Source of the DNA: an uncultured Melioribacter sp.
GTDB lineage: Bacteria > Bacteroidota > Ignavibacteria > Ignavibacteriales > Melioribacteraceae
Assembly (NCBI GenBank): GCA_964570865.1
Contig: CAZMZM010000006.1
Span: 196 to 64,195, forward strand
Direction of reading: 5' to 3'
Length of the DNA: 64,000 bases
Shown here: one piece after another, positions 185 to 19,372 of the stretch
Layout of the letters: each line of letters opens with the position of its first letter
How positions within the stretch are numbered: position 1 is the first letter of the stretch
The notes under the pieces: generated by a model
What the model saw: the letters and a program-made list of their open reading frames with translations, nothing else
What the model was told of the DNA's origin: nothing
The model's database searches: none
Program-made: the position numbers and the translations under genes

Positions 185-1051
185 TTATTTTCCGTTAATA
201 ATCACGCTTCCGTCTTTCGGCGGATTTCCGCTGAATATTCTTCCGTCCTCTGTGTGGAACTCGACAATTGTATATTGCAGTTTTGAAACGCCTGCGGCTT
301 TAGCTTTAAATTGCATTGTAAGCATACTGCCGGAACCGCTTATACTTCGGCGAGGTAATGTGTAAAGTGTTGCAAGCACGGCGCTGTTAATATCGATCTT
401 TCCGGTAGCATTAATGCCTGCTAAAATCGTAGAATCGGAGAAATTAGGAACGGTAATTAGCTCAAATCCGCTTCTGCTTACAAAATCTCCTTTTGTGATT
501 CCTTCAAGTGCAAGATATGTAGTATCGAAAGCAATTACTGTGTGAAGCGCAACCAAACTGTCCACACCTTCGAGCCAAACACTTATCGAATCGGATTGCC
601 CGACACTCATTATTGTTTCGGTTTTAAAGAACATCAGCGCCGGACCGCGAAAAGCATCAACCGAAAAAACTCTCGAAACCGTTAACTCTTGATCTGTGTG
701 CTGTTTTAATCTGCCGCTTACCTCAAACTTATATTTACCTTCGTCAAGATTCTCAAATGTAGTTTCGATGAGAGTTCCCCACTCCGACCAATCTTTATAA
801 ATTGTCGGAAAATTATCTTCATCCAAAGCCAGCATTCTGAATCTGTATTCAAAACCGTTATCGCTTCCTGACCAACCGAATGTAACATAGTTAACTGCCA
901 AAACCTTATCCGGTGAAGGTCCTTCGGTAATCTGAAGGAACGGAGGCGGGTTATCAACAACAGCAGGTCCGTTGCAACTTTCCGTAAAAACCAGCATTAG
1001 CGCAGCGATAACCAAATATATAAAGCCATATTTATTTTTGATAAACTTCAT
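185..1051 (-). CDS. Secreted, possibly lipidated protein with an FN3-like N-terminal half and a cohesin-like C-terminal half
   Basis: 288-aa ORF with an ATG start 10 nt after the giant gene's stop. Signal peptide ends ...LVFTESC (Cys26). The segment 'VTFGWSGSDNGFEYRF...KYKFEVSGRL' is FN3-like. The segment 'LVALHTVIAFDTTYLALEGITKGDF' resembles cohesin strands. Family call is by eye only. Confidence 0.6.
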   Translation of the reverse strand: MKFIKNKYGFIYLVIAALMLVFTESCNGPAVVDNPPPFLQITEGPSPDKVLAVNYVTFGWSGSDNGFEYRFRMLALDEDNFPTIYKDWSEWGTLIETTFENLDEGKYKFEVSGRLKQHTDQELTVSRVFSVDAFRGPALMFFKTETIMSVGQSDSISVWLEGVDSLVALHTVIAFDTTYLALEGITKGDFVSRSGFELITVPNFSDSTILAGINATGKIDINSAVLATLYTLPRRSISGSGSMLTMQFKAKAAGVSKLQYTIVEFHTEDGRIFSGNPPKDGSVIINGK

Positions 1052-1061
1052 TGTTGAAAAC

Positions 1062-4000
1062 CTATTTTAAGATAACCATTTTTTTAGTCGATATATATTT
1101 ACCGGCAACTATCCGATAGAAATAAACTCCGCTTGCAAGTGTTGAATTCTGGTTATAAGAGCTGAACTTGGTTTTGTAAGCTCCGGCATCCAGCACTTTA
1201 TTTACAAGCGTGGCAACTTCTTGTCCGAGTATATTATAAACTTTAAGTAAAACTTTTACTTTCGCAGGCACATCAAACTCAATTGTAGTAACCGGATTAA
1301 ACGGGTTGGGATAATTTTGATATAGTGCAAACTTGTTCGGAACTTCCTGCAAAGTATAAACTTTTGCTCCGTTTACCGCAGCATTAAATTTCTTATCATA
1401 TCCGAGATACTTAATCAAAATAGAATCTTTCGGATTATTCCTATTTAAATCCGCTGTGATGTTCGAAACAATGGAATACTTACTTCCTATTCTTCCGCTT
1501 AAGCTGGCAAAGTCAACGCGGATAATTCCTTTAACGCTATCTTCGTAAGCAAGCACAATATTATCCATACTTTCCGTTTCGGGATTAAATTTAAGCGAAT
1601 CGAACTTAAATACTTCAGGATTGAAAGCAATTTCAGCCGAAAGCGCAGTTAAATTTTCCGAACCGAGATCAAAATCGAATGTAAACTTGTTTTCACCTTT
1701 TTTGAACTTAATCAACTCTCTCGAATCCGCGTCTGCAAAATTAATTGCCGTCTTCTTCGGCAAGCCACGGTTTTGAGCGTAATAATTCCACATATCACGG
1801 AAGACAAGCAAATCGTTAATATTCAAATTATCATCCGGAGTAACCGTAACGATTGGAGTTGAACCTGAATACGGGTACATATCAGCGCCGGAAGATGAGT
1901 CGGGTGTATCCCACGAATAGACGTAGGCGGCTAAATCAGCACCGTTTATCAGTCCGTCGTTGTTAAAATCAGCCAAAGGCATACTTTTATTCGTCTTCAA
2001 GTATTCAGTGTAATTACCGAATGAATCTGAGACCTTAAGTTTGTAGTGATAATTAGTTGAAGTCTGAATGTTCTGCAAAACTGCCTGTGTGCCATACGAT
2101 TCCGCACTTGGCAAAGTATCGAAAATATTTGAATCGGAAACCCACAGTTCGTACTTAATCGGTTTACTCGTATCGCTTGCCGTGCTCCAATTGGCAATAG
2201 CTTTACTCCAACCATATTCAAACGGATTTTGACTGACAACAATTGATGAAGGATCAAACTGAGGTGCTTTATTATCTAAAACAATAGTATCGGCGCTTAC
2301 CTTGTAATCCACACGATAAGTGGAATGGAAGTTAGCATTAAATACGACAGGTCCCTCAAAATTATCAAGCTGTCCTTTTGAATTCCATTTAATAGTATCT
2401 ACAAGCGGACCAACAAGATTTTGATATGAGCCTTGCAGATAAGAAAATCCGTCGTTCTCGCTGCCGCCGATTGTTTTAAAAGTAAAACTGGTTAAATCAA
2501 CGGTTTCATTTGCGTTCGGCAAACTATAGAGGAGTTTAACAATTCCGGATTGTGAATTGCCAATAGGTGTAAGTGTGGGATATACTCCAATCAAGAAAGT
2601 AGTATCGCTCTTATCCGAAACATCTACCGTGTAAATATCGGTGATTTTTATTCTAGCATCAGCTGTTGGAGTGTTTGGAACATTCCAATTATACGAACCG
2701 GAATTTGCATCGGTAATTGCAACAAGAACAGGGAAACTAGTCCCGCCGTCTGTTGAGAGAAGAATTCTTACGCTGTCTAAATAGCTGCTTGTCCAAGTGA
2801 TATTATATGTTGAATTGGCATTCACAGCTTCATAATTATTAGGATTGGTAACCCTAATTGAAACAATTGAGAAATTTGTATCGCTAATATCAAAGACATT
2901 CGGATAGTCGAAATCCTGCAATTTTATTCTAGCCTGATCGGTTGGTACATTAGGGACAGTCCAAATAAACTTTCCGCTGTCGCCGGGTGCAGCTCCTGCA
3001 AAGTTCCAAGTGTTTCCGTCGTTTACAGAATAAGAGATTCCAATATTATTAATATATTGGCTTTCCCACTTTATTTCGTATTGCTTTCCAACTTGAAGTT
3101 TCTCTAAATCACCTCCATTTGGAGTAGTCAGCTGAATATGCGAAATAACAAACGACGAATCGCTGATATCAAAAATCGAATGATTATTTGCATCTTCAAC
3201 TTTCATCCGTGCGGAGGGGGTAGCCTGTGTACTTATTAACCAATAATAAGTTCCGGATGAAGCGTCAATATTATTTGCAATAGGAGTCCAAACATCTGAA
3301 CCACTTTGTAATTCTACGTAAAGATTAACATTTTGAATTGTTGAATTACTTGAAGCCCATTCAATCGTGTATGATGTACCAATCTGTTCCCCTTCACCTC
3401 CGTTCGGTTTTTTCATCTTGATATAGCTTACCGTAAAATTGGAGTTGGATGTGTCCGCTATATTCGGATAATCCGTATCAACTATTCTTAACAGATAATT
3501 CGGAGATGCTAAGTTAATATCGTCGGGAATTGACCACGTATATTTAGCGCTATCAGCAACAACAGGAGCAGTATTAATATTAGTCCAATTCAAAGAATCG
3601 GTTGAATATTGCAAATTAATAAAATTAATAAATGAACTACTCCACGTTATTTCTTGGTCTTTTCCTGTTTGATAAACTCCCCCGCCATTCATATTTACAA
3701 TTTTTAAGTTACTGATGAAAAACGGAGCATTGGAAACATCAAAAAGCAACGGGTTATTTACATCATTAATTTTAACAAAACACGAATCGGAAACGTCATC
3801 AGGAATTGTCCAATCGTAATATGTTGAATCGGCAGGATAATTTAGCGCAATGCTTTTCCAAACGCCATCTTTTGTTTTGTAATAAAGGCTGACCTTTGCA
3901 ATATTATCAGTTCTTGTCCAAGATAATTTTTTAACCGAGCCAACCAATACCTTCTCCGGAGAATTGAAAACTGTCAACTCCAAACCGCCGATCGAGAAAA

Positions 4001-7000
4001 AGTTGTCGCTGGTATCGGTCAAAGTTACATTTGTTGCATCCGTAATTTTTACCAGCGCAGAATCGGTCGATATTCCCGAACCGATGTTCCAACTAAATGA
4101 ACTATCTGCTGAACTCGCCGAAGATGCCAACCTACCCCAATGCGTTCCTCCATCCAAAGAATAATCAATATTTATATATGGAATAGTTGCAGCAGTTACA
4201 TTCCACGTAATTGTATATGGAGCACCGGCTTGAATAAATTCATTTCCGTTTGGAGTAAGTAGTTGAATTTTGCTGATTTTAATCGAACCACTCTCATCAC
4301 TGATTAAATCATTTGATTCGGCATCTCTAACCACAATTTTTGCATGAGAAGATTCGATGGAAGGAAGCGTCCAAACATAAGTTGAGTCCAAAGCGTTAAT
4401 GTTGGCATCTATCAAAACAAGATTTGAATCGGCTGTATTCCCATTTAAAGTATAAAGTAAATTTACTTTATGAACCGAAGATGAGGCATCCCAAGCTATT
4501 GTATCTTTTCTTGTGGCAATCCAATGTGCTCCGACAGAAGGCGAAGTTACTTTGACCCAACCAACGCTAAACGGAGATACGCTAGTAACAACCTGAGTAC
4601 TATCAACAGTATTTCTCAATCTGATTAAAGCTTGCTCCGTTGAAATCTGCGGCGGTACATTCCAACCCCAAAGGGAATCATCTCCGATAGCTGCAGAAGT
4701 TAAAGTATCCCAACTTGCTCCGTTATTATAAGAAACTTCAATCTGAAGGTTTGTGATAAAAGCACTTGCCCATTTAATATTGTACTGAGAGCCTGCCTCT
4801 AATTTTTCACCTCCGTTTGGCGCAATTAATGATAACTGTGAAGTGAAAATAGTAAAATTATCAGTTGTATCTGCAACTGTGTTTATATTAGGGTTATAAC
4901 CTCTGATTAAACAACTGTTTGTGTTAACATCTGCAGGTAAGTGCCAAGTAAGTGAATCCCGATTAGCGGCGATATTGTTTTTTACTGTTCTCCAAGTCTG
5001 CCCGGCATTTAGTGAATACTCTACATTAATGTTTCCTAAAAAGTCTCCCGAGTTCCACTCAATCAAGTGAGTTGAACCGGAGTTCCAATTAGTAGAACTA
5101 TTTGGGGATGTGAATTCCAAAACAGATGTTGTAAAGAAATTATCCGATGAATCAATAATTGAATAATTTGAGCGTACATCACTAATTCGGATAAACATTG
5201 AATCACTAACTAAACCAGAAGGGAGTGTCAACTGAGATGCGCCGGTTTTAGCGGAATCAATTTCCGAAAGCAAAATCAGATTTGTTTTAGCATTAATTAC
5301 TTCAACCAAAACCCGTTTGATTGAATTCCCGTTTGACCACGTAACAGGGAAACTTTTACCTGAAAGAAATACTTCCCCGCCATTCGGAGATAGAATTTTA
5401 ACCCATCCCGTAGTAAAAATCTTAGATACGGAATAGACTGTCGGATGTTGAACCGATTCAATCTTAATTTGAGTACTGTCCGAGCTTAAATTATTTGGAA
5501 CATTCCACGAAAATGTTCCGGTTGATGCTATTAAGTTTGAGGCTCCTTGAATTGTATTCCAAATTGTACCGTTATCCAACGAATAATAAAGCTTTACATT
5601 CGAGATATATGAACTCGCATTCCAAGTTATCGGCAAGGTTGTTCCGGCAGGTATATATTCACCGCCAACAGGATTAATCAGTTTTAATCGTGCAACAGTA
5701 AAGACATTTTTACTTGAGTCCGAAACTTCCGGGTTTTCCAGATCAGTAAGTTTAATTAAGCATTGGTCTGATTCCAAAGTATCCGGGACAGCCCAAAGTA
5801 ATGAATCATCGGAAGCGAGTGTGGCATTGCTGATAATGCTCCAAGTTGCTGCATTATCAATGCTAAGTTCAACCTTAAAATAATTGACAAGGGAGCTTGT
5901 CCAGCGAATAACGGTAGTATCTCCGGCTTGGAAAAATTCACCGCCGACAGGATATGTAAGAGTTGCAACCGATTGGAAAATTGAGAAGTATCCCGATTCG
6001 GATTTAATGTTTTGATTTATTTTATCGTAAACCCTTACTTTAACCGAATCGCTGATTGTATTTGGAATTAACCAATTGTAAGCCAACGATGAAGCTGCAG
6101 CATCGGAAATGTCAATCCAGCTAGCCCCTTTGTTCAGAGAATATTGTAAACTTACCGAATCAACTCCGCAATATTGCCATTTAATTTGGTGTGTAGTACC
6201 GACACGCCAATTTTGTCCGGCTGCAGGTTCTACGAGAGAGAGTTGCTTAACGGTTATCGGCTTAGTAGTCGTATCTGCAATAGTTTGGTAAGCAAAATTA
6301 AAAGCGCGGATATAAATAGAATCTCCGCAAACGGAGTTATCCAAAATCCAGTAATAAGTCGAGTCGGACGCAGCAACCGGCGAAGTGTTAATCGTAAACC
6401 AATTTGTTCTGTCGGTAGTATATTCCATTTGAACCGAAGTAATGTCCGAACTGTTTATCCATGAAATTGCAACTGAATCCCCGGTTTGATATTCTCCGCC
6501 ATTAATAGGAGAAGTTAAATTGAACATACTTATTGAAAATGGATTTGAGATTTTCTTTATTGCCAAATTACTGTTCGCATCACTTATTCTGATATATCCT
6601 GAATCTGTTGGGATATTATTAACTAACCAATTATAACTGTTTGTTGTCGCCGGAACTGTTCCGAGTGTATTCCAACCGGTGCCGTCAGCGGAAAAATCGA
6701 TACGAATGTTCGTCATGTTGGAACTTGCACTCCAACTAATATTTTGCGGCTGATTAGCCTGCAGATGCTCACCTCCGATTGGAGAAAGAAGATTTATCCA
6801 TCTGACAAAAATATCCTGCGAACTGCTGTCGGCAATAAATGTATTTGTAGCATCTTCAATTTTAATTCTCAATGAATCAGTAGCAAAATTTGCAGGTACA
6901 GAATAAGTGTAACTTTTGTTTGACGCAGGATAATTAGCTTGAATCCGACTCCAGGAACTCCCGGAATTTGTTGAATAATAAATATTAACCAAAGAAATAT

Positions 7001-10000
7001 TAGATGTCAGATTCCAAGTAATATTATGATCTTTGCCCGATTGCCAATACTCACCGCCGATTGGAGACAAGAGAACTAACTGTGCGTTTGAAATTTTAAA
7101 GAAATTAGATGTGTCGTTTACGTTTGCAAAATCAATATCCGAAATTTTAACCAATACGGAATCCGTATTAATTGAGTTTGGAATTGTCCATGAATATTTT
7201 TCGGTGGAAGCGGCAACCGAATCAGCCATCGGCACCCAAGTTGTTCCTTTATCAATAGAATAGTTAATTGATATTTTCCTTATGTCCGTTGAAGCTGTCC
7301 AAGTTATTTCTTGCGTGGAACCGGCAATCCATACGGTAGAACCGGTCGGGACTGTTATTGCCAAGTTTGAAATTGTATTGGCAAAAGAAGTTTCATCGTA
7401 TATTGACGAAGGAGCAGAATAATCTTCTATTCTCAGATAAATTTGCTGTGAACTGACATCGGGAATTCTCCATAAATAAGAACCTTGCGAAGCATCAATA
7501 TTCATAGCTATTCCAGTCCATGTTCCCGTACCAATCTTATAAAATAGATTTACCTTATTTACGTTGGACGAGTTAATCCAAGTAAGAGTTTCCGTATCAC
7601 CGGCTTGCCATTTAGTAGTTGTAAGCGGCGAAGTAAAGTTTACGGATGCAATTCTAAGATATGCGTCGCTTTCGTCTGAAATGGAATTATCTACGGTTGA
7701 AACAACCCTGACTTTTACGCTATCGGAAGGTACGTTTGGAATAGTCCAATTATAACTGCCGTTTGAAGCCGTAACCGAAGCAACAATAGGCTGCCACCCT
7801 GCGGAAGGAGTGTAATAATCGAGTTTAACATTTGCAATATTATTACCACTGTTCCAAGTAATTGATTGAGTTGCCCCTACCAATAAATCCTCTCCGCCGT
7901 TAGGTGAAATTATGTTTAACATATTTATTGTAAAAACGGCGTCACTTCGGTCAACAATTGCGCCGGATGATAAGGCATTTGAAACCCTGATCAATGCGGT
8001 TGCGGATGAAATAGTTGACGGAATATTCCAAGTATAAGATGATGCGGAATCGGTGAAAGAAACTACACTGTTCCAAGTAACTCCGTTATCGGTTGAATAG
8101 TCGATATTAAAAAGAGAATCTGCCGGAGTTGAGTTCCACGAGATTGTAACGGGTTGTCCGGCTTGTAAAATCTCTCCGCCGTTCGGATAATTAACAATAA
8201 TTCGTCCGATAGTAAAATTGTTATCGTTAGCAGCATTTATCTCAGGATTGGAAGCATCGCTGATTCTGATTAAACCTTGTGAAGTCGAATATGTGCCCGG
8301 AATGTTCCATCCATAACTCCCATTCGTTGCTGTCTCGGAATTGGATAAAGTTTCCCAACTTGCACCGTTATCGGGAGAATATTCAATTTTAACATTTGTT
8401 ATTTGCGATGCCGTCCAAGTAATATTGTAGAGATTTCCGTTCGTCCAGAATTCCGAACCGGCAGGAGAAACCAACTGCAAATCGGAAATTGTAAAAACAC
8501 CCCCGGCAGAAACAAGAGAACTGTTATCGTCAAGAATCCTAACTTTAGCTTGTGATGAAGCCGTACCGGAAGGAATCAACCAAGAATAAGTTCCCAACGA
8601 AGCGGTAATATTAGCAGCGAATGAGTTCCACGTAGTTCCGTTATCTAACGAATACTCCAGCGAAACCGTTGATATATTTGAACTTGCCGTCCAAGTAACA
8701 TTGTATGATTTACCTATTTGCCACTGCTCGCCTCCGACAGGAGAAGTAATCTGAAACGAGTGAATCGAGAAATTATTGTTGCTGACATCATAATGTGTCG
8801 AATCCGAAGAATCGATTATTTTCATTAATGCTTGATTTGTGCTCACACTACTCGGGACCGTCCAAAGTAATGAATCAGCTGTCGCATTAAAATTGCTTAC
8901 AATATTCTCCCAATTTGTTCCGTTGTCGGAAGAAAAGTAAATATTGATTTGTGAAATATTTGATGAGGTCCATTTAATATAATGTTGTGAACCCGATTGA
9001 TAGACTTCTCCTCCGTTCGGCGAAACAATATTAAGATCTACAATAGTGAAAATATTACTTGTATAGTTAACCGAAGGATCGTCCAAGGAAGTAATCCGTA
9101 CAAGCGAATTATTAGAAGCAATACCAGTAGGAATCAGCCAATTATAATTTTGTGAATTCGCATTTACGGAATTTACTATATTATTCCATGTTGTCCCGTT
9201 ATCGGTTGAATATTCGAGTTGTACACTATTTACATTGATGCTGCTCCAAGTAATAGCATGCAAAGTGTTTGTTTGCCAAACCTCCCTGCCTACCGGTGAA
9301 GTTAGGACCAATCTTCCAATTGTAAAATTAGCATCACTTGAGTCCCTGATTGTGGAATTATCCAGATCAATAATTCTTACCAAAGCCGCAACAGTAGAAA
9401 TTGTATCGGGAACATTCCAAGAATATGAGCCGTTTGAAGCTGAAATAGGAGTTGAGATGTTAATCCAATTTGTTCCGTTATCAGTACTCAAATCAATCCG
9501 GATGTTATTTACCAATCCGCTATTCCAAGTGATAGTTTCGTTATTACCAACTTGCCAGTTCTCGTTTCCATTCGGAGAAGTAACCGTTAAATATTTAATT
9601 GTAAAAAGTGGAGTATCAAATAAAATAGTCGGGTCAGATGAAGATGAAATACGGACTATTGTTTGAGCCGAAGAAATATTTTGAGGCAAAGTCCAATTAT
9701 ACTTTCCTATTGAAGCGGCAATACCGGAAATAATATTCTTCCAAGTTGAACCGTTATCCGTACTATATTGAATATCAATCGATTGTAGATTTTCACTGTT
9801 CCAATCAATTTCGTGCACTGTGCCTGATTGCCATTCTGTTGAGGAAGTAATATTAGTTACCGACAAATCACTAATCTTAAAAGGTGAAGTCAATGAATCG
9901 GTGATACCGCTGTTTTGGTCACTACTAAGTAATACCAAAACACTGTCCGAAGTTAAGTTTGGAACACTCCATAAGTAACTTCCGTCAGACATATTAACAC

Positions 10001-13000
10001 CCGAAACAATTGTATTCCAAGTTTGACCTAAATTTGTCGAATAGAAAATTGAAATTGTATTAATCAAAGAACTCCCCGACCATGTAATGTTATGAGCAGA
10101 ACGTGCCTGCCAATTGGTTGCATTAGTAGGTGAAGTTAAACTTAGATTGACCAATGTGAATGCTTGGGAAATATCATAAATCGCATCTGTTGAAGAAAAA
10201 TTAGAGTTAACGTGAGATACTCTAATCCGTGCAGTTGAAGTTGACATATTATTCGGGATCGTCCAGAATACGGAAGAATCGGAAGCAGTTACATTTGTGC
10301 TAATTGTATTCCATGAAGTCCCGTTATTCGTTGAATATTCAACATTAACTTGAGAAATACTTGAGGAAGCCGCCCAATTAATTTTGTAGGTTTTACCTGA
10401 CTGCCAAACCGTTGATGAGATAGGCATTTCAATTGAAACAGCACCAATTGTAAAGTTCTCCGAACTATCAATAGCGGCATTATTATCAACATCAAAAATT
10501 CTTATTTTTGCTTTATCAGTAGATAAAGAATCCGGGATAGTCCAATTATAACTTCCGGTTGAAGCCGGAGTTGAGGCCGTTACCGCATTCCATGTAGTTC
10601 CTTCGTCAGTTGAATAATCGATTCCAAGGTTTACAATATTGGAACTATTCCATGTAATTGTGTATGAATCTCCAGCAATCCAAAGAGATGAAGATGTCGG
10701 ATAAGTTAGGCTTAAATTATTAATTGTAAATGTTTGTGATGTTTCTGTAATTTCCGATCCGGTTCTAACATCAGTTAACCTAATCTTTGCGTTTGCAGTT
10801 GAATTATTAGGAACGTTATAGTAATAAACACCGGAGCCTGCACCATATGAGGGTGAAATCTGAGACCAGGTTGTACCTCCGTTAAATGAAATTTCTATTT
10901 TCAGAGATTGAACTCCGGCTGAACTCCATTTGATTGGCTGAACCGAACCTGTTTGCCATACAGTAGATGAAATAGGTTCCGTGATTGAAATATCACCTAC
11001 TACAAATAAATTATCGCTTGAATCTTTTATTCCGGGATGAGACGAATCTGTAAATTTCACAAGCATTGAGTCGGAAAATAAAGAAGACGGGATACTCCAA
11101 CTATAACTTCCTCCTGAGGCAGAAATGCCTGTTGTAATTGATGTCCAACTCTGTCCGGAATTTGTAGAATAATCGATATCCAACTTTGAAATACCGCCGG
11201 AATTCCAAGTAATGGATTTCACAGTTCCGGAATTCCAAGCCTCGCTTCCGTTAGGAGATGAGACTGTAAGATAAAATACATTAGCCGTTGCATCGCTAAT
11301 ATCGTGAACCGTGTTAAAATCGTTGTCAATAATTCTAATCAAAAAAGTAGTTGTTGATAATGAGTTGGGTATTGTCCAATTATATTGTCCCAAAGATGCC
11401 TGAACATTGTTGGTAATTGTTTGCCAAGTAACTCCGTTATCATCAGAATACTGAATTGTGGCATTATCAACATTATACGATTGCCATAATATCGGCAGTA
11501 CATCCCCGGCTTGTAGAAACTCACCACCGTTCGGATAAGTGATTGTAATATTAGCAATAGAAAAAGTACCGTCACTTTCATCATTAATAGTTGAATCAGT
11601 ACTATTTTCAATACGAACCATCGCTCTGCTTGTTACGCTGTCGGGAACTGTCCAATCAAATCTTTCTGCTGTTGCATCTACATTTTGTTGAATTAAATTC
11701 CAAGTTGTTCCGCTATTAATTGAATAGTACAATTTTACATTGGCAATTGTTGCAATATTTTGCCAAGTAATTGTCTTTACGGAATCAACCTGCCATTTCT
11801 CTCCACCGTTTGGCGAAGTAAGCAAAATTGAACCGATTGAAAAATAATTATTGCTGGCATCCAACACAGAGGAATTAGTTTCATCCACTATACGTACTAA
11901 TGCTCTATTAGTTGGTGCATTGGGAATTGTCCATGTATATTGCTTATCCGAAGCGGTAATATTAGACGCAATCGGGTTCCAAGAAGTACCTGAATTAGTT
12001 GAATATTCGAGACGAACTGTAGCAAGAGAACTATATGCGAGCCATCTTATTATTGCGTTATCATTAACAATATAGTTTTCTCCTCCGTTAGGAGAAACCA
12101 TATAGAGTAAATTTATTGTAAATACTGAAGCTGAGGTGTCGGCAATCTCAATTGACGGGTTGTCGGCATCACTTAATCGAAGCAATGTATTGGTTGAGGG
12201 AGTATTCGGTATTGTCCAATCATATGATTGAGGTAACGCCGGAGTTGAAGCTACAACTGTTTGCCATATTGCGCCGTTATCCGTGGAATATTCAATCTTC
12301 AAATTAGCAATTTGTCTGCTGGTCCAAGTTACTGTCGCAACACTGTCAACCAGAAAATAATTGCTTCCGTTTGGACTTCCAAGTTGAAGTAACTCAATCT
12401 TAAAATCATTATCAGAATCATCGTAAATATCCGTAAACGAATGATAAAGTACCCTGACAAAAGCATTTGCTGCATGAATTTGCCCAACCATCCATGAATA
12501 ACTTCCGGTAGCTGCAGTATTATTTACTATCGGGGACCAACTTGTTCCGTTGTCAGTTGAAAGTTCAATATCAACGGAATTAATATTAGAAGAATAATCG
12601 TAAGTGATATTATATGTTTTTCCTGCTTGTAATATCGTCCTTCCGTTAGGATATGTTACAGAAATATTTCCTATAGCAAAGTAAGAACCTGAAAGATCAA
12701 AATTACTCGAATTACTTAAATCGGAAATTCTGATTAATCCGGAATTAGTATAAGATGTAGGAATTGTCCAAGAATAAGTACCCAACGTTGCATCAACTCC
12801 GGAAGCAATTGTTGTCCAGCTTCCTCCACCATCAGTTGAAAACTCAATCAAAAGTTGAGTAACTCTATCTGAGTTCCAAGTAATATTTGTAGTCTGATTG
12901 GGTGAAAATCCTTCTCCACCGTTAGGTGATGTTATTTGTAAAATTCCTATTGAAAAATCATTATCCGAAGCATCAAGAATGTTTGCTGTAGTTGCGTCAC

Positions 13001-15002
13001 TTATCCGGACTCTTGCCTGAGATGTTGAAATATTAGGGACATGCCAATTATAACTTTCATCCTGAGCATCAACCGCACTGGCTCCGGGGATATTAGTATA
13101 GGTAGCGCCTCCGTCAACCGAATATTCAATTCTTACCTGACCAATTGAATTTGTAGCACTCCAAGTAATCGGATAAGAAATTCCTCCAACAATTTTTTCT
13201 CCGCCGTTGGGAGTAAGAACGGAAATATTTCCAACCGTAAAATATCCGGGATTTGTATTTGCAAAATTTTCGTTACTTTCATCGCGAACCCGAATTTTCA
13301 TTTGGTCTGATGAAAGTCCGTTAGGAATAGTCCAAGAATAAGTACCGGTTGAAGCCGCAATGTTATTTTGAATTAAAATCCAGTTAGTTCCTCCATCCGA
13401 TGAATAATCAATCGCTACATTTGAAATATTTGAACTTGCAGTCCAATTAATTATCACATTATCTCCCCATTTGAAAATAGCACCATTCAAAGGAGAAGAA
13501 ATTTGCAGTGTAGCAATGCTAAACGAATTACTTTTATGTTTTTTCCCGATTCCGGTAGCAGAATCGTAAACTCTTACCTTAACATTTCCTCCGAACAATC
13601 CGTTCGGAATAAACCAAGTGTAAGTACTCAATCCCGCCGGATAAGCACTAACAATAGTGTTCCAAGTTGTTCCGTCATCTGTAGTATAATCAATTCCGAC
13701 TACATCAATCCCTGTTGTGTTTGTCCACGAAATATTATGAGGCTGTCCGGCAAGCCAATTTTCACCTCCCACAGGAGCGGTAACTGTAACTGAACCGATT
13801 GTGAAATTTTCATGGCTTTCATCAAGAATAGATGAATCCGCAGAAGATGAGATTTTAACTTTTGCTTCGCCCGTTGGAGTATTCGGAGCTGTGTAAGTGT
13901 AAGTATTTAATCCGGAAGAAATATTTGAAGCTATACTTTCTGTGTATGTTGCCCCTCCATCGGTTGATAAATCAATATCAATATTCCCCGATAAGTTGGT
14001 TGTCCAAGTAATCGGAACATCGATGCCTATTTCCCATCCTTCTCCCCCATCAGGTGAAGTGATTTTGAGATTCAATACCGTAAATGTGGATGAACTTTGG
14101 TCGTAAACATTTGAATTTCCCGAATGGCTAATCCTTACCAACACTTGGCTCGACAAAACATCGGGAACTTGCCAGCCGTATGAACCGACTCCTCCGGAAA
14201 CAGAATCGGCAATTTCAATCCAAGGACCTCCATCAACGGAGTACTCCAATTTAACGTAAGTAATGTAGGAACTGTTCCAAGAAATAACATGAGTTGAACC
14301 GGCACGCCACGATTCACCCCCGATAGGAGAAATTAGCGATAAATCAGCGGCAATAAAATTAGGAGAAGTTGCAATAATTGTTGCCGGATGCGCATCATCA
14401 TAAATTCTTATTTTTGTCCGGTTAGATGAAACGATATTAACATCCCAAAGATAAGTATTATCATTTGCATTAACCCCTGCAGCTATTGTATTCCAACTTG
14501 TTCCTCCGTTTACTGAATATTGAATCGTAACCGTTGCAATATCGCTGCTTGCGAACCAATTAATAGCAGTAGCTCTACCTGTTTGAAAAACCGAGCCTAT
14601 TTTAGGTGAGTTTATGCGTAATTCAGAGAGAATGAAGTTTGAATCGGAAATATCGAAAATTCCGCTTCCTCCGGCATCAACAATCCGTATTCTTGCTTCT
14701 TGAGACGGAGGAACTGTTGTGGAATCAATTGCCCATACATATTTTCCTAAACTTGCAATAACATTTGAGGCAATGGTTGTCCAACTTACCCCGCTGTTTA
14801 TTGAGTACTGAACGTTAACAGTTGAAATTTCTGTGCTGCTCCAAAGTATTGTTTGTGATGTACCGATCTGCCAAAGTTCACCTCCGTTAGGGGAAGTAAC
14901 CTTAATAGTTTTAGCTTTAGGTGTGTTACTTGTTTGTGCAACCAATACACCGGAAGTTAATGCTAAAATAAGCAACAATATTTTTGTTAAACGTTTCATC
15001 AT
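1062..15002 (-). CDS. Giant (4,646 aa) secreted repeat adhesin with a type IX secretion C-terminal sorting domain
   Basis: Uninterrupted 13.9-kb ORF with an ATG start and signal peptide [23 protein letters not shown]. It holds about 44 tandem ~90-aa modules. The C-terminal 507 aa run FN3-like, dockerin-like, cohesin-like, then a T9SS CTD (...[16 protein letters not shown]...GVYFYRI...). Confidence 0.9.
   Translation of the reverse strand: [4646 protein letters not shown]
1065..1334 (-). other. T9SS C-terminal sorting domain (CTD) of the giant protein
   Basis: The last ~90 aa read '[45 protein letters not shown]...[24 protein letters not shown]'. This matches the familiar Por-secretion-tail pattern (NPFN...T.I.F, V.L.VY...G, GVYFYR). 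Confidence 0.75.
1344..1691 (-). other. Cohesin-like module in the giant protein, between the dockerin-like segment and the CTD
   Basis: '[33 protein letters not shown]...[10 protein letters not shown]' resembles cohesin beta-strand signatures. Called by eye only. Confidence 0.35.
1788..1973 (-). other. Dockerin-like (EF-hand-type Ca-binding) segment in the giant protein
   Basis: '[21 protein letters not shown]' fits D-x-N-x-D-G-x-I-N-x-x-D-L. A degenerate second segment is '[17 protein letters not shown]'. Codon positions were checked against the DNA (GCT of Ala at 1971-1973). Confidence 0.5.
2586..14900 (-). repeat. About 44 tandem, strongly diverged ~90-aa protein modules (coding repeat), each with one Asp-box/BNR-like S-x-D-x-G-x-T-W motif
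   Basis: Recurrent pattern SPNGGE-W-x-G-x5-[IV]-x-W ... [EDQ]-Y-S-x-[DN]-x-G-x-[ST]-W-x-x-I ... G-x-Y-x-W-x-[IV]-P ... [KR]-[IV]-R-[IV]-x-D. I counted 44 Asp-box-like cores by hand. Boundaries are approximate. Confidence 0.8.
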
Positions 15003-15055: not shown

Positions 15056-16438
15056 TTAATAATTTATTCTTATGATTGGTGAAAACACCAAATAACTTTT
15101 TTGTCTGTAAAAAGGTAAACTGCCGGAAAATGAAAAACCGGAGTAATATTTAAAATCAAAACCTATAGTGTTTCCCAGCATAACCCTTGTTTTAATGCCA
15201 AAGTAAGTATATCCGTCATTAACATTAATATTCCATTGAAACGCAGCATTATACTGCAATAAACCAGGCGCATTTGCTAATGAAGCTTCAAAATTTAAGT
15301 TATATTTAAACTTTGCTTGATCAGGGTCCAAATCTATTAAATTTGAATATTTCGGATTATATAAGTAATTGTAAATATCAAATCCCGAAATGCCCGCTGA
15401 AGCGTTAAGCCATCCTAAATCCATTACATTAAAAATATTATTATAATGTCCGACTATGGCAAAATAATTGCGCGTTGAGTAGAACTTTGAAATATACTCC
15501 AAATTAAAATAAGTTGCAGGATATTGTGTTACCGCAAATGAAGTAAATAACTCAAAATTGTAATTCTTTGCATTATCCATAAAAAGATTTAAAGGATTTC
15601 CTTCGAACTTAAAGTAAAGATTAGAACCCGTACTATAAAGTTTACCTCCGCTTAAAGGACTAAATTCAAATTCAGGCTGATGAGCAGTAAAGCCAATTCC
15701 TGTTTCAAATGAATATGTACGATAAGGCTCGGAGTTAACAAGATAGTCGATATAAGTAACCTTAAGCCCTGCAACATAATTGGGATAATACCACCCGGGA
15801 ATCAGCAAATAATCGTTCCCCCATCTTCCCACATAAGAGACAAGATATTTATTTCTATAAGTAGTGGTCAAGGAGTAAAACATCAATTCCGGATTAGCAA
15901 TATTCAAATTAATATCAAAATCATATGCGTCTTTATTATCATAATAAGTTTTTGTTAAATCGTTAAATGCATAAAACTGGCTTTTAAGATTATTGTAAAG
16001 TTTTTCGCCTAAAATTTCTTTAATCTGAACATTATCCAAAATAGGATCAAAGAAATAAACATTTTTATTTGAATCTAATGTTGATTCTGTGAAAAACCTC
16101 ATCACCTCAATTTCATTATCGTAATAGCGTTTTCGTAATTCAACAAATACCTTCCCTTGATAAATATCTCGTGCTTTTTGTTCTACAAATTTCTTAGTCG
16201 GTTTTTTCCCGTCAACTTTTAATGCATTAGCAACAACCATCCGATTAAATATTTCTCTTACAAAGAGCGGATCGGTAATATCCCAGATATTTTTTAAATC
16301 ATTAAAAGCAATTGTGTTGTATTCCAAACTATGGTAAATTCTTTTAATTCGCTCAATCTTCAGCGAATCGGAATTCTGTGCCGAAACAGAAGAAACAAGA
16401 AAAACTATTGGCAATATTAATAAAGTTAATTTTTTCAC
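15056..16438 (-). CDS. Predicted outer-membrane protein, type B copy 2 (paralog of 17972..19372)
   Basis: 460 aa with signal peptide ...VSSVSAQ. The GTG start shares one nt with the upstream stop (TAGTG). The C-terminal half is beta-rich with alternating hydrophobics and ends ...VFSPIIRINY (aromatic terminus). Similarity to the 466-aa paralog is strong (LEYNTIA[FY]NDLK, RKRYYD[ND]EIE, SPIIRINY). Confidence 0.75.
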   Translation of the reverse strand: MKKLTLLILPIVFLVSSVSAQNSDSLKIERIKRIYHSLEYNTIAFNDLKNIWDITDPLFVREIFNRMVVANALKVDGKKPTKKFVEQKARDIYQGKVFVELRKRYYDNEIEVMRFFTESTLDSNKNVYFFDPILDNVQIKEILGEKLYNNLKSQFYAFNDLTKTYYDNKDAYDFDINLNIANPELMFYSLTTTYRNKYLVSYVGRWGNDYLLIPGWYYPNYVAGLKVTYIDYLVNSEPYRTYSFETGIGFTAHQPEFEFSPLSGGKLYSTGSNLYFKFEGNPLNLFMDNAKNYNFELFTSFAVTQYPATYFNLEYISKFYSTRNYFAIVGHYNNIFNVMDLGWLNASAGISGFDIYNYLYNPKYSNLIDLDPDQAKFKYNLNFEASLANAPGLLQYNAAFQWNINVNDGYTYFGIKTRVMLGNTIGFDFKYYSGFSFSGSLPFYRQKSYLVFSPIIRINY

Positions 16439-17964
16439 TAAAATCCCAACCTATAAACTAATTGAACAGCTGCACCGGTATTTTCCCATTCGTTTAATTG
16501 CCTAAACATTGGTTTTGAAATATACTCAACCTGAAATCTGAATGTATGAAGTTTGTCCAATTCAAAAATCTTTAACCAAAACTTTCCCCTAAGCATACTG
16601 TCAAAATATCTCAACTTCATACCAAACAATTCTTTTTTCTGTGGAACAAACGTAAAATAAAAATTCAGTACCGGACTAATTTTGTAATGTACAGGATAAT
16701 CTCTAACACCCTTATGGTAAATAACCTTATACACGTCATACGCACCCATACCAATGTCAATCTTAAATCTCATGTTTAAACGCTCACTTTTATTCCAGAA
16801 AAATGACATTGTATATTCCCAAGAATTAGTATTAAAAAATGCGCGCGAACTATCGCTTGGTCCAAAAGAAACATAAGGACGACTAAAATCCTTAAATCCA
16901 CTGGCAAAATAAAAATTCATAAAAGGAAGTCCGTAAATTCTTGTTGTATTCACATCAACAACCAAAGCGGAAAGGACATTCAAGCGTGGAGGATCGGCAT
17001 AAACAAATGGTAATTTGTATGAGAACGAAGATGTATTAAGTCTAAAACGAGTCAATATTTTTGCATTAATTAAAAAGTCATCGTACAAATTTCGGACGAC
17101 TTCCGAAAAGGAGATAAACGTTCTTACTCCAAGAGACATGGTCATTGATTGCCACGGGAGCAAATTAAGGACTTTTGTCTCGGAGTTCCATTCGGCACCG
17201 ATTGAACTGAATCCTAAATTTAGGTGTTTAGAATCGTAAAAAGTTACATGGCTAAAATCTGCCTCTACATGATAAGGGAAATTCAGAGCTCCTTTTTTTC
17301 TTCTGCCTCTTCTGGCTTTCTTCTTAATAAGAACAGGTCTCGGGAAATATTCTGAGGAATTTACCCAATTATAGTTTAAGAAATCTTGATTATTTTTACC
17401 TGAAATCCCCTTACTTTTCATCAATTTATCATCAACCGGAATTCCAAGCAATGAGTTTGGCATTTGTTCTTCAAGAGCATTTACAAGAAGTTTATACAAC
17501 TTAATATAAATCTTTTTGTTATTAAAGTATAAGTTCTGAATATCGCCGAAACTTAAAACTAAAGTAGTATCATAATTGGAGCCGGATGAAATTTGGTCAA
17601 ATAAGCCACCTCCACCGCTTTGTACGGAACGATCAATTTCCTCAAATACTTGTAAAATTGTAAGGGAATCAGTATCTAATGTCTCGCCTAAAAACTCAAA
17701 AATGTAATTAACTCCATCTCTCTTTTCAAAAGAGTACGATTTTACTTTTAAATTAAGTTTCGGAACATTTTTGAGGGCGGAAAGATCTTTCTTGTTTATA
17801 TCAACCGGAACGGCATAAATATTTAAATATTTTTTGTCACTTTTTAATTTTTTTTCAGCCAACTTATAATAATCGCCAAGATTCTGACTTTTCAATAATG
17901 TCGGCAAAGCAAAAACAACTAAGCCAATTACGGTAAAAAATATGTAATTAAAATATTTTTTCAC
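16438..17964 (-). CDS. Predicted outer-membrane protein, type A copy 2 (paralog of 19362..20891)
   Basis: 508 aa with a GTG start 7 nt after the upstream stop and a hydrophobic N-terminal signal. A central polybasic patch IKKKARRGRRKKG is present. The C-terminus ...VQLVYRLGF looks like an OMP beta-signal. Shared motifs with the 509-aa paralog: DKKYLN[IV]Y, VLNLLP, MSF[FY]WN, YTFVP, EYI[ST].P, [DE]WE[NT].G. Confidence 0.75.
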   Translation of the reverse strand: MKKYFNYIFFTVIGLVVFALPTLLKSQNLGDYYKLAEKKLKSDKKYLNIYAVPVDINKKDLSALKNVPKLNLKVKSYSFEKRDGVNYIFEFLGETLDTDSLTILQVFEEIDRSVQSGGGGLFDQISSGSNYDTTLVLSFGDIQNLYFNNKKIYIKLYKLLVNALEEQMPNSLLGIPVDDKLMKSKGISGKNNQDFLNYNWVNSSEYFPRPVLIKKKARRGRRKKGALNFPYHVEADFSHVTFYDSKHLNLGFSSIGAEWNSETKVLNLLPWQSMTMSLGVRTFISFSEVVRNLYDDFLINAKILTRFRLNTSSFSYKLPFVYADPPRLNVLSALVVDVNTTRIYGLPFMNFYFASGFKDFSRPYVSFGPSDSSRAFFNTNSWEYTMSFFWNKSERLNMRFKIDIGMGAYDVYKVIYHKGVRDYPVHYKISPVLNFYFTFVPQKKELFGMKLRYFDSMLRGKFWLKIFELDKLHTFRFQVEYISKPMFRQLNEWENTGAAVQLVYRLGF

Positions 17965-17971
17965 AAACTTA

Positions 17972-19372
17972 TTAGTAATTTATTCTGATTATCGGTGAAA
18001 AAATCAACTGAGTATCAGTCCTAAAAGGATACTTTTGAGTATCCAAACTAAAAAATGAATTATAAGTAATTCTAATACCAAAAGTATCACTCAACATAGC
18101 TTTTAGACTCACACCTCCGACGCCATATCCTTCGGATGAATAGCTTACATTAAAAATAATTTGATGCTGAATTAATCCGCCATACCTTTCAACCCCTATT
18201 TTTGCATTAACAAAATGAGTAAAACTATCAAAAAAGTCATGTCCGTCTAAATCGACTAAATTTTTCCTCCCTGGAAAATATTTTAAGTGTTTTAACGTGT
18301 GAGACGAAACTCCCAAACCAACCATCAATTGACCTAAGTCAAATAAGTTTACAAGTTTTCTTTTGGTTACACTAAAATTCACAAAATCCCTTACAGAATA
18401 AAAACTTGTAGTATCCATTTTACCAAACTCTTTATCCGTATAGTCGGAATAAGAGAACGAACCCGAGAAATCAAGATAATAACCTTTAACTTTAGGGAAA
18501 AGATATTTGAAAACATCCCCGTTAATCTTAAAGTAAATGTCATCTGCCGATTTCATAAGTGGAGATGCAGGTTGAGCAGTGGGATAAACAATTCCGGAAG
18601 AAACCCCGGTACCTATAGCAACTTTGTACGTGTACTCCTCAGGATCATCAGTCAAATACTTGTAATATGTTACTTGCGTACCTACAAAATACTCCGGAGA
18701 AGTCCATGCAGGGAAATATACTTCACTCATTCCCCATTTACCGAAAACTGTAGCAAGATACTTATTACGGTAATCAGACGTAGTTGACCAAAACATTAAA
18801 TAAGGATTTATCATTTCCATATTAATATCGAAGAAGAATCCAGGTTTTACGTCATATTCCTTTTTTGTAATATCACTGAAATAGTATTGACGCTTTTGCA
18901 ATTCCTGATAAATATTTTTACCTACAATTTCGCGCAAATAAAACCCGTCATAAACAGGGTCAAACAAATAATTCGGATTTTCCTTGTCTAATTCGCCTTC
19001 CGGGACAAATGCGAAAAATTCTATTTCATCGTCGTAATAACGTTTACGCAAATCTAATACAACTTTCCCTTCAAATATATTTTGAGCTAACTTTTTAAGT
19101 TTAGAACTATTTATCTTCTTACCATTAAGACGAAGTGCATTGTTTACAATAAACCGTCCGAAAACATCTCGAACAAAACTGGGATCTTTAATTACCCATT
19201 TAACTTTTAAGTCGTTGTAAGCAATAGTATTATATTCAAGATTATTAAAAATCTTTTTTAAATCCGATAACCGTTTTTGCTCAGAAGTAGTTTGAGCAAC
19301 GGAAATTGTTGAGATAGCAATAATAGCAAACAACAATAACTTAAATGCAGTAGTTATTTTTTTATAGTCCAT
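17972..19372 (-). CDS. Predicted outer-membrane protein, type B copy 1
   Basis: 466 aa with an ATG start that overlaps the upstream gene by 11 nt. Signal peptide ...ISVAQ. The C-terminus ...IFSPIIRINY is identical in its last 8 aa to the 460-aa paralog. Confidence 0.75.
   Translation of the reverse strand: MDYKKITTAFKLLLFAIIAISTISVAQTTSEQKRLSDLKKIFNNLEYNTIAYNDLKVKWVIKDPSFVRDVFGRFIVNNALRLNGKKINSSKLKKLAQNIFEGKVVLDLRKRYYDDEIEFFAFVPEGELDKENPNYLFDPVYDGFYLREIVGKNIYQELQKRQYYFSDITKKEYDVKPGFFFDINMEMINPYLMFWSTTSDYRNKYLATVFGKWGMSEVYFPAWTSPEYFVGTQVTYYKYLTDDPEEYTYKVAIGTGVSSGIVYPTAQPASPLMKSADDIYFKINGDVFKYLFPKVKGYYLDFSGSFSYSDYTDKEFGKMDTTSFYSVRDFVNFSVTKRKLVNLFDLGQLMVGLGVSSHTLKHLKYFPGRKNLVDLDGHDFFDSFTHFVNAKIGVERYGGLIQHQIIFNVSYSSEGYGVGGVSLKAMLSDTFGIRITYNSFFSLDTQKYPFRTDTQLIFSPIIRINY

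Follow-up and report, generated by a model that had tools for sequence, protein, structure and literature searches.

In the type II cohesin–X-dockerin pairs of Clostridium thermocellum, the dockerin at the end of a huge extracellular protein (CipA XDoc) has rigid support from a neighbouring β-sandwich, the X module, and separate envelope-anchored proteins (SdbA, OlpB and Orf2p) supply the cohesin that retains it non-covalently on the cell. A comparable arrangement, built from different parts, may exist in a 64,000-nucleotide stretch of DNA (the window; NCBI GenBank assembly GCA_964570865.1, contig CAZMZM010000006.1, positions 196 to 64,195) from an uncultured Melioribacter sp., which is part of a 2.47-Mb metagenome-assembled genome (MAG) of the class Ignavibacteria that is 96% complete. 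On the minus strand of the window, a giant gene for a predicted type IX secretion system (T9SS) cargo is followed by a small gene for a putative lipoprotein with a cohesin fold. The giant protein carries a dockerin-like module and a cohesin-fold module (Doc–Coh) immediately before its type A C-terminal sorting domain (CTD). We propose that the cohesin of the lipoprotein is a dedicated membrane receptor for the dockerin-bearing foot of the giant fibre, the two genes forming a cargo–receptor module of the T9SS, and put the probability of this reading at roughly one half.

Type A CTDs are translocated via the T9SS and cleaved by the PorU sortase. To our knowledge, the retention of T9SS cargo is understood only for Porphyromonas, where it is covalent, to anionic lipopolysaccharide (A-LPS), and not for most of the FCB (Fibrobacterota–Chlorobiota–Bacteroidota) superphylum. 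As with SprB/SprF of Flavobacterium johnsoniae and the T9SS of Porphyromonas gingivalis, the gene for a giant, repetitive putative adhesin with a CTD has small accessory genes of the envelope as neighbours here, the genome encodes PorU and SprA, and a GldL-like/PorP-like cluster lies upstream. The candidate partner differs from both: it is a cohesin-fold lipoprotein, unlike the β-barrel SprF that partners SprB and unlike the covalent PorU/PorV/PorZ attachment to A-LPS in P. gingivalis.

By function, the closest described system is the type II cohesin–XDoc anchoring of C. thermocellum. It differs in several respects. The anchor here would be a lipid-modified cysteine in a diderm instead of SLH (S-layer homology) repeats; the supporting sandwich comes after the dockerin and is itself of cohesin fold, whereas the X module lies immediately N-terminal to it; and export would run through the T9SS with a cleavable CTD, with no enzymes, no multi-cohesin scaffoldin and a degenerate second calcium loop in the dockerin. 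A cellulosome was rejected because the pair lacks an enzyme domain and a multi-cohesin scaffoldin. Membership of the type II X-dockerins was likewise rejected, since the N-terminal neighbour of the dockerin is FN3-like and the packed sandwich is C-terminal with a cohesin fold, even though the unit may work like an XDoc.

By sequence and fold, the closest relatives are the non-cellulosomal cohesins of Clostridium perfringens NagH, NagJ and NanJ (2ozn, 2jh2 and 2vo8) and of Archaeoglobus fulgidus (2xdh, from a protein bearing both modules). They resemble this locus in placing cohesins and dockerins outside cellulose degradation, in that both modules can share a polypeptide, and in being the best profile and fold matches of the giant protein's cohesin. 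Unlike the proteins described here, they are Sec-secreted glycosidases or archaeal, and none is known to be a T9SS cargo with a module fixed before a CTD or to have a dedicated cohesin lipoprotein gene as its partner. Non-cellulosomal cohesin–dockerin modules were reportedly surveyed by Peer and colleagues in 2009 (FEMS Microbiol Lett 291:1). A full-text literature search returned no cohesin lipoprotein paired with T9SS cargo, only cellulosome-like inferences in other phyla. We know of no description of a cohesin-fold lipoprotein partner or of a Doc–Coh cassette placed before a CTD.

Conservation of the gene pair

The two genes and their parts are listed below, with residue numbers of the respective protein.

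1062..15002, minus strand: giant gene; 4646 residues, with a signal peptide, about 50 Ig-like (Kre9_KNH-type) repeats and a conserved C-terminal foot of about 500 residues (from the open reading frame list and the translation)
2274..2582, minus strand: β-module that opens the C-terminal foot, residues 4141–4243; aligned in all orthologues
1983..2273, minus strand: FN3-like unit, residues 4244–4340; weak fn3 profile matches
1770..1982, minus strand: dockerin-like module, residues 4341–4411; two loops, each with a helix after it
1935-1970, minus strand: canonical calcium loop 1, D4345–D4356
1812-1847, minus strand: degenerate loop 2, residues 4386–4397
1335..1751, minus strand: cohesin-fold module in cis, residues 4418–4556; joined directly to the CTD
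1065..1334, minus strand: type A T9SS CTD, residues 4557–4646; PF18962 and TIGR04183
1052..1061, minus strand: gap from the stop codon of the giant gene to the ATG of the small one; exactly 10 nt, and 1–20 nt in relatives
185..1051, minus strand: small gene; 288 residues, with a lipoprotein-type signal and Cys26, an Ig/Y_Y_Y-like domain and a cohesin fold
974..1051, minus strand: signal peptide of the small protein with Cys26; a putative signal for lipidation
656..946, minus strand: Ig-like/Y_Y_Y-type β-sandwich of the small protein, residues 36–132; Y_Y_Y matches and AlphaFold2 (AF2) model
191..643, minus strand: cohesin-fold domain of the small protein, residues 137–287; Pfam matches in the family and Foldseek

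An earlier description of this DNA, made from the letters alone (the sequence-only reading), had placed the small gene 10 nt downstream of the giant gene; the open reading frames at 1062..15002 and 185..1051 give exactly this gap, and every string it had quoted was found in the translations where it had put it. It had further suggested checking whether the small gene always follows a giant CTD gene in relatives. In all ten homologue look-ups, at 40–89% identity, the small gene has a giant T9SS gene directly upstream, with a gap of 1–20 nt, and the genes further downstream vary among the ten loci. In a wider sample the order varies: the lipoprotein gene is downstream of the cassette gene in the window's family and upstream of it in other families, and in one sister species, described below, the pair is split.

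Co-occurrence extends beyond the window's family. Of 301 genomes taken from the whole class, 24 carry the lipoprotein family, and these represent 9 of 135 genera. Among the lipoprotein-positive genomes other than the window's own, 21 of 23 carry the Doc–Coh cassette, versus none of 20 negative genomes drawn from the same family and order (Fisher p 2.6e-10). Lipoprotein and cassette are each present in one to three copies per genome, and where the two genes of a pair lie on one contig, they are adjacent or less than 10 kb apart, in either order. Some are very closely spaced; a 275-residue lipoprotein gene lies 35 nt before the gene for a 1016-residue cassette protein in genome G129, and the two genes overlap by 4 nt in G170. 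The co-occurrence, the match in copy number and the translational coupling together argue for a physical partnership of lipoprotein and foot. A specific functional link between them, which the sequence-only reading had put forward as a cell-surface anchor, is strongly supported (synteny in 10/10, co-occurrence in 21/23 versus 0/20), and a cohesin–dockerin anchor is a plausible form for it to take.

The passengers of paired cassettes range from about 500 to 9131 residues, and this wide variation in size indicates that it is the foot, not the repeat fibre, that co-varies with the lipoprotein. A dependence of the pairing on giant repeats was ruled out, as partners of 500–1000 residues with other passengers keep it. 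The longest passenger belongs to another family of the order (G237:C2:132428-134191), where a Doc–Coh cassette ends a 9131-residue open frame and the lipoprotein gene follows. In the window's protein the repeats are about 80–90 residues each, with a weak Pfam match to Kre9_KNH, and the orthologues of the giant protein in relatives are 4448–4833 residues long. The β-module at residues 4141–4243 matches no family. In the 1016-residue protein of G129 (L104 1211-4261) this β-module (YPTLTP...DTIKWNSKGQLDNFEG...) is kept together with the FN3-like unit, Doc–Coh and CTD behind a different passenger, which defines a conserved foot about 500 residues long.

Database annotation of both families reads ‘hypothetical protein’ throughout, or just ‘T9SS type A sorting domain-containing protein’. 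Scans for sigma-70 promoters and terminators around the giant/small junction were uninformative. Upstream, at 15056-24827 of the window, the giant gene directly follows a duplicated outer-membrane-barrel gene pair and a GldL-like/GldM-like pair. In G001 (C48:127412-131744) and G002 (C141:27256-31065), whose lipoproteins are 41–44% identical to the window's, the giant orthologue likewise has an orthologue of the last barrel gene directly upstream. The genes for the fibre and the lipoprotein may therefore form the tail of an envelope operon in the window's family; in other families the pair stands alone, without the envelope cluster.

Predicted folds of the foot and the putative lipoprotein

The giant protein's foot: The strings KAPQFDPSS, KYELWVSDS and YHYKLKVSDSFGN lie within residues 4244–4340, the unit that the sequence-only reading had called FN3-like. 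The fn3 profile matches five of seven orthologues of the giant protein (best E 0.006), Pur_ac_phosph_N matches two, and a profile search of the PDB gives a weak match to the FN3 domain of chitinase A1 (1k85, E 0.69). The FN3-like label of the unit is weakly supported by these profiles. The dockerin-like module follows, with calcium loop 1 at DFNNDGLINGADL (residues 4345–4357). Conservation was assessed in a set of 23 cassette sequences, consisting of the window and 22 relatives of the Doc–Coh segment from orthologous loci and a protein search. Loop 1 reads as the canonical D-x-N/D-x-D/N-x-x-I/V-D/N-x-x-D in 23 of 23 members of this set, and positions 1, 3, 5, 8, 9 and 12 are kept in 20–23 of the 23 sequences, some of which are just 16–25% identical to the window overall.

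Profile matches in the same set are consistent with both modules. Dockerin_1 (PF00404) matches 11 of the 23 cassette sequences, with a best E of 9.3e-5, and Pfam Cohesin matches six, with a best E of 5.6e-7; the NCBIfam dockerin_GC model reaches E 8e-4 on the giant protein itself (19.8 bits vs a cut-off of 29). The cohesin-like block previously pointed out in the giant protein, LSAEIAFNPEVFKFDSL, spans residues 4452–4468. A PDB profile search with the cassette returned nearly exclusively C. perfringens NanJ and NagJ cohesins (E 0.012–0.4), together with clostridial dockerins at weak E-values. The PDB sequence-profile matches of both proteins are individually non-significant, and their value lies in cohesins and dockerins dominating the match lists.

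The AF2 model of residues 4335–4556 has a pLDDT (predicted local distance difference test score) of 84.2, rising to about 90 over the cohesin part. It orders the segment as a loop–helix, a β-hairpin linker, a second loop–helix and a nine-strand sandwich, with helices at model residues 20–31 and 61–77. When this model was compared with the PDB by Foldseek, the top 20 matches were all cohesins (E 8e-7 to 5e-5, template modelling (TM) score 0.43–0.63), led by 2vo8 (E 8e-7) and followed by 6kgf, 3ul4, 4dh2 and 2xdh, these five at TM scores of 0.52–0.63. The predicted TM score (pTM) is 0.83, versus 0.54 for the two-domain model of the lipoprotein, and the dockerin and the cis cohesin are accordingly predicted to form one rigid unit. 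A rigid Doc–Coh unit leaves one free cohesin for one dockerin.

The same model bears on self-association. Here the dockerin would pair with the cohesin in its own polypeptide in a closed state, or with that of a neighbouring chain in a head-to-tail polymer or lateral lattice, and the cohesin of the lipoprotein would only start the chain or form its base, or bind some other ligand. Head-to-tail polymerisation through the cis modules had already been named as an alternative by the sequence-only reading, and contact in cis has some support from the modelled rigid unit; a pTM of 0.83 would fit equally well a support in the manner of an X module, a dockerin capped by its own chain, and polymerisation from head to tail. 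Dockerin and cohesin sharing one polypeptide, confidently modelled as one unit, would suit self-association, as would the Coh–Doc–Coh–CTD arrangement carried in cis by other T9SS proteins of the window's own genome (contigs C100 and C12) and the occurrence of both modules on one A. fulgidus polypeptide (2xdh, among the fold matches). It leaves unexplained, however, the near-perfect co-occurrence, at matching copy number, of a cohesin lipoprotein that has no dockerin, and the virtual lack of a Doc–Coh linker in the model would make domain swapping between chains harder. We regard self-association as unlikely.

The CTD that completes the giant protein, as previously proposed, scores above the curated cut-offs of both TIGR04183 (38.3 bits vs 23) and PF18962 (33.5 bits vs 27). 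The window's own genome encodes a full-length PorU sortase (NF033707, 899 bits) and SprA (SprA_N, E 2e-41), so that CTD-dependent export and cleavage are to be expected. From its sequence, the giant protein is confidently predicted to be a T9SS type A cargo.

The small lipoprotein: The small protein belongs to a tight, unannotated family of 36–52 clusters, all from Ignavibacteria MAGs. Y_Y_Y matches the window's own sequence below threshold (E 0.0013) and 36 of 37 family members, with a best E of 9.6e-9; Pfam Cohesin matches 34 of 37 at E<=0.1, with a best of 1.6e-5. The cohesin-like block previously noted in this protein, HTVIAFDTTYLALEGITKGDF, occupies residues 169–189, and the PDB profile search matches cohesin 5g5d at E 0.015. 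The AF2 model (pLDDT 85.6) consists of two β domains. The N-terminal domain has seven predicted strands at a pLDDT of about 90 and is better called a Y_Y_Y/Ig-like sandwich than FN3. Residues 137–287 are modelled as a nine-stranded jelly-roll β-sandwich that superposes on solved cohesins: Foldseek returned almost exclusively cohesins for this domain, the best being 3ul4_A (TM 0.76) and 2xdh (TM 0.77) at E ~1e-7. Cohesins of types I, II and III account for dozens of other matches, at E 1e-8 to 1e-6. Cohesins are thus the top PDB folds for the AF2 models of both proteins, in agreement with the cohesin-like blocks seen at the outset. Aligned by hhalign, the cohesins of the lipoprotein and cassette families fall in register, at a level that is not significant (probability 2%, E 0.022), and the two are not claimed as close paralogues.

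Cys26 is invariant in all 37 homologues and stands at the end of a hydrophobic segment preceded by a basic n-region. The residues at −3 to −1 (TES in the window; ALS, QG or NG elsewhere) fit a relaxed lipobox only. A putative lipid anchor at Cys26 would suit this pattern, and of the signal/Cys protein with an FN3-like unit and a cohesin that had been described earlier, the cysteine and the cohesin stand, whereas the FN3 label gives way to the Y_Y_Y/Ig-like one. The sequence right after the cysteine, CNGPAVVDNPPPF, shows no Bacteroidota-type acidic surface-export signal.

This absence would suit a periplasmic location, in which the lipoprotein is an export adaptor or chaperone in the outer membrane's inner leaflet that grips the folded Doc–Coh foot and presents the long cargo to the T9SS translocon, and is not a surface anchor. 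T9SS cargo is known to fold in the periplasm; the pair lies at the end of a conserved GldL-like/outer-membrane-barrel envelope cluster; the cassette abuts the CTD in 82 of its 85 top matches, pointing to an export-coupled role; and, by analogy, SprB-type cargo needs the cargo-specific PorP/SprF. Cargo with a type A CTD generally needs no private adaptor, however, cassette proteins outside the class have no neighbouring lipoprotein homologue, and nothing known requires cohesin–dockerin pairing inside the periplasm. An adaptor of this kind appears improbable.

Evidence bearing on the proposed membrane receptor

If the cohesin of the lipoprotein is the receptor of the fibre's dockerin foot, the pair may work as follows. 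The giant protein would be an exported surface fibre or adhesin, whose CTD would take it through the SprA translocon and then be removed by the PorU sortase. The small protein, lipid-anchored through Cys26, would display its Ig-like spacer and its cohesin, which would bind the single functional Ca2+ loop–helix dockerin of the foot, so that the fibre is held non-covalently on the outer membrane; we infer this choice of binding partners, the need for calcium and the placing of the lipoprotein on the surface. The cis cohesin would play the part that the X module has in type II X-dockerins, either as a supporting β-sandwich or by capping the dockerin for a time, until the cohesin of the lipoprotein takes its place.

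Several observations weigh against this proposal, beginning with the domain assignments. In loop 2 of the dockerin-like module, positions 5, 8, 9 and 12 are retained and the acidic positions 1 and 3 are gone; a canonical loop followed by a degenerate one is what the sequence-only reading had described, and the 23-sequence set bears this out. It had also suggested a check against PF00963 and PF00404, which gave a divided answer: the relatives match both families, and the window's own sequences stay below threshold. Dockerin_1 scores the window's sequence at E 0.42–0.71, below the gathering score, Pfam Cohesin finds no match in the giant protein's own residues 4418–4556, and on the small protein Pfam Cohesin (PF00963) reaches E 0.0046 (17.6 bits vs a cut-off of 24.1).

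These scores and the degenerate loop would fit a situation in which there is no cohesin–dockerin pairing at all and the modules serve as a calcium-stabilised stalk or spacer before the CTD, like the Ig-like domain before gingipain CTDs, with the lipoprotein acting on a glycan or another envelope protein. The weak hhalign result for the two cohesin families (probability 2%) and the resemblance of many β-sandwiches to cohesins point the same way. Such an explanation has to contend with the retention of the six loop 1 positions in 20–23 of 23 sequences, down to 16% identity, with the dominance of cohesins in both fold searches, and with the co-occurrence and translational coupling of the gene pair, which argue for a physical partnership; we consider it very unlikely.

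Gene neighbourhood and the model provide further points against a receptor. In a sister species of the same genus (G017), the nqrABCDEF-apbE operon for a Na+-translocating NADH:quinone reductase splits the pair (L103, G017:C31:108000-125000, at 7896-14828). No lipoprotein homologue was found within 4 kb of the distant cassette proteins P0051 and P0048, which lie outside the class. If the pTM of 0.83 reflects canonical binding in cis, the dockerin would already be occupied. The lipoprotein could also face the periplasm, and, PorU being present, covalent anchoring may already be available to the cell.

A conserved two-gene module of a cohesin lipoprotein and a cargo with Doc–Coh before its CTD would, if the receptor proposal is true, constitute a concrete protein–protein anchoring mechanism and extend cohesin–dockerin biology into diderm, non-cellulolytic bacteria. 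The recurrence of the gene pair across the class suggests an undescribed, protein-based way of holding T9SS proteins on the cell. A broader version of this idea is tentative: Doc–Coh–CTD tails and cohesin lipoproteins might form a general non-covalent attachment layer for T9SS proteins in Ignavibacteria and related FCB phyla, either in place of PorU/A-LPS sortase anchoring or in addition to it, with the dockerin passing from the cis cohesin to the membrane-anchored cohesin after cleavage of the CTD. We hold this generalisation to be less likely than not.

The Doc–Coh–CTD tail in other proteins

The Doc–Coh–CTD arrangement is a widespread portable tail, a point absent from the sequence-only reading. 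A word-based search also recovered it from shorter T9SS proteins that are unrelated to the giant one, where it can follow Big_5 domains, for instance. In an exhaustive HMMER search of 1.84 billion representatives, 1219 clusters carry it at E<=1e-3, of which 692 reach E<=1e-10, on host proteins that range from about 280 to 5400 residues. Among the 85 best matches of full length, there are 82 in which the Doc–Coh unit ends 83–100 residues (median 91) before the C-terminus, directly against the CTD. Given its spread over about 1200 clusters and the variety of its passengers, the tail is a candidate portable display tag.

In the window's own genome, the lipoprotein-family and cassette profiles each match only the two window genes. 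Besides the pair, just two Pfam-detectable dockerins and four cohesins are present, on T9SS proteins, with no catalytic modules in the parts seen. Four more proteins with T9SS tails carry Pfam-detectable cohesins (C100:2-1411, C100:1628-3427, C12:46242-50135 and C45:2-2476); two show Coh–Doc–Coh–CTD in cis, on contigs C100 and C12, and two show Coh–FN3n–CTD, with FN3 repeats behind the cohesin, on C45 and C100. A C100 open reading frame contains a stretch of N (X) left by an assembly gap.

When the whole C-terminal alignment was scanned against genome contigs, the CTD motif QNYPNPF swamped the search, and none of the 80 loci recovered had Doc–Coh. A metagenome scan with the CTD left out gave four weak loci, of which L090 is a true distant cassette and L088, L089 and L091 have dockerin-like tails only. 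At 1100-2992 of L088, a 631-residue protein from outside the Ignavibacteria terminates in a dockerin of the cassette's subtype (ADFNGDGKIDFEDL...ADIGPYPGGDGVVNLRDFALFARYW), without a cohesin and without a CTD, which indicates that the dockerin half of the cassette also circulates alone.

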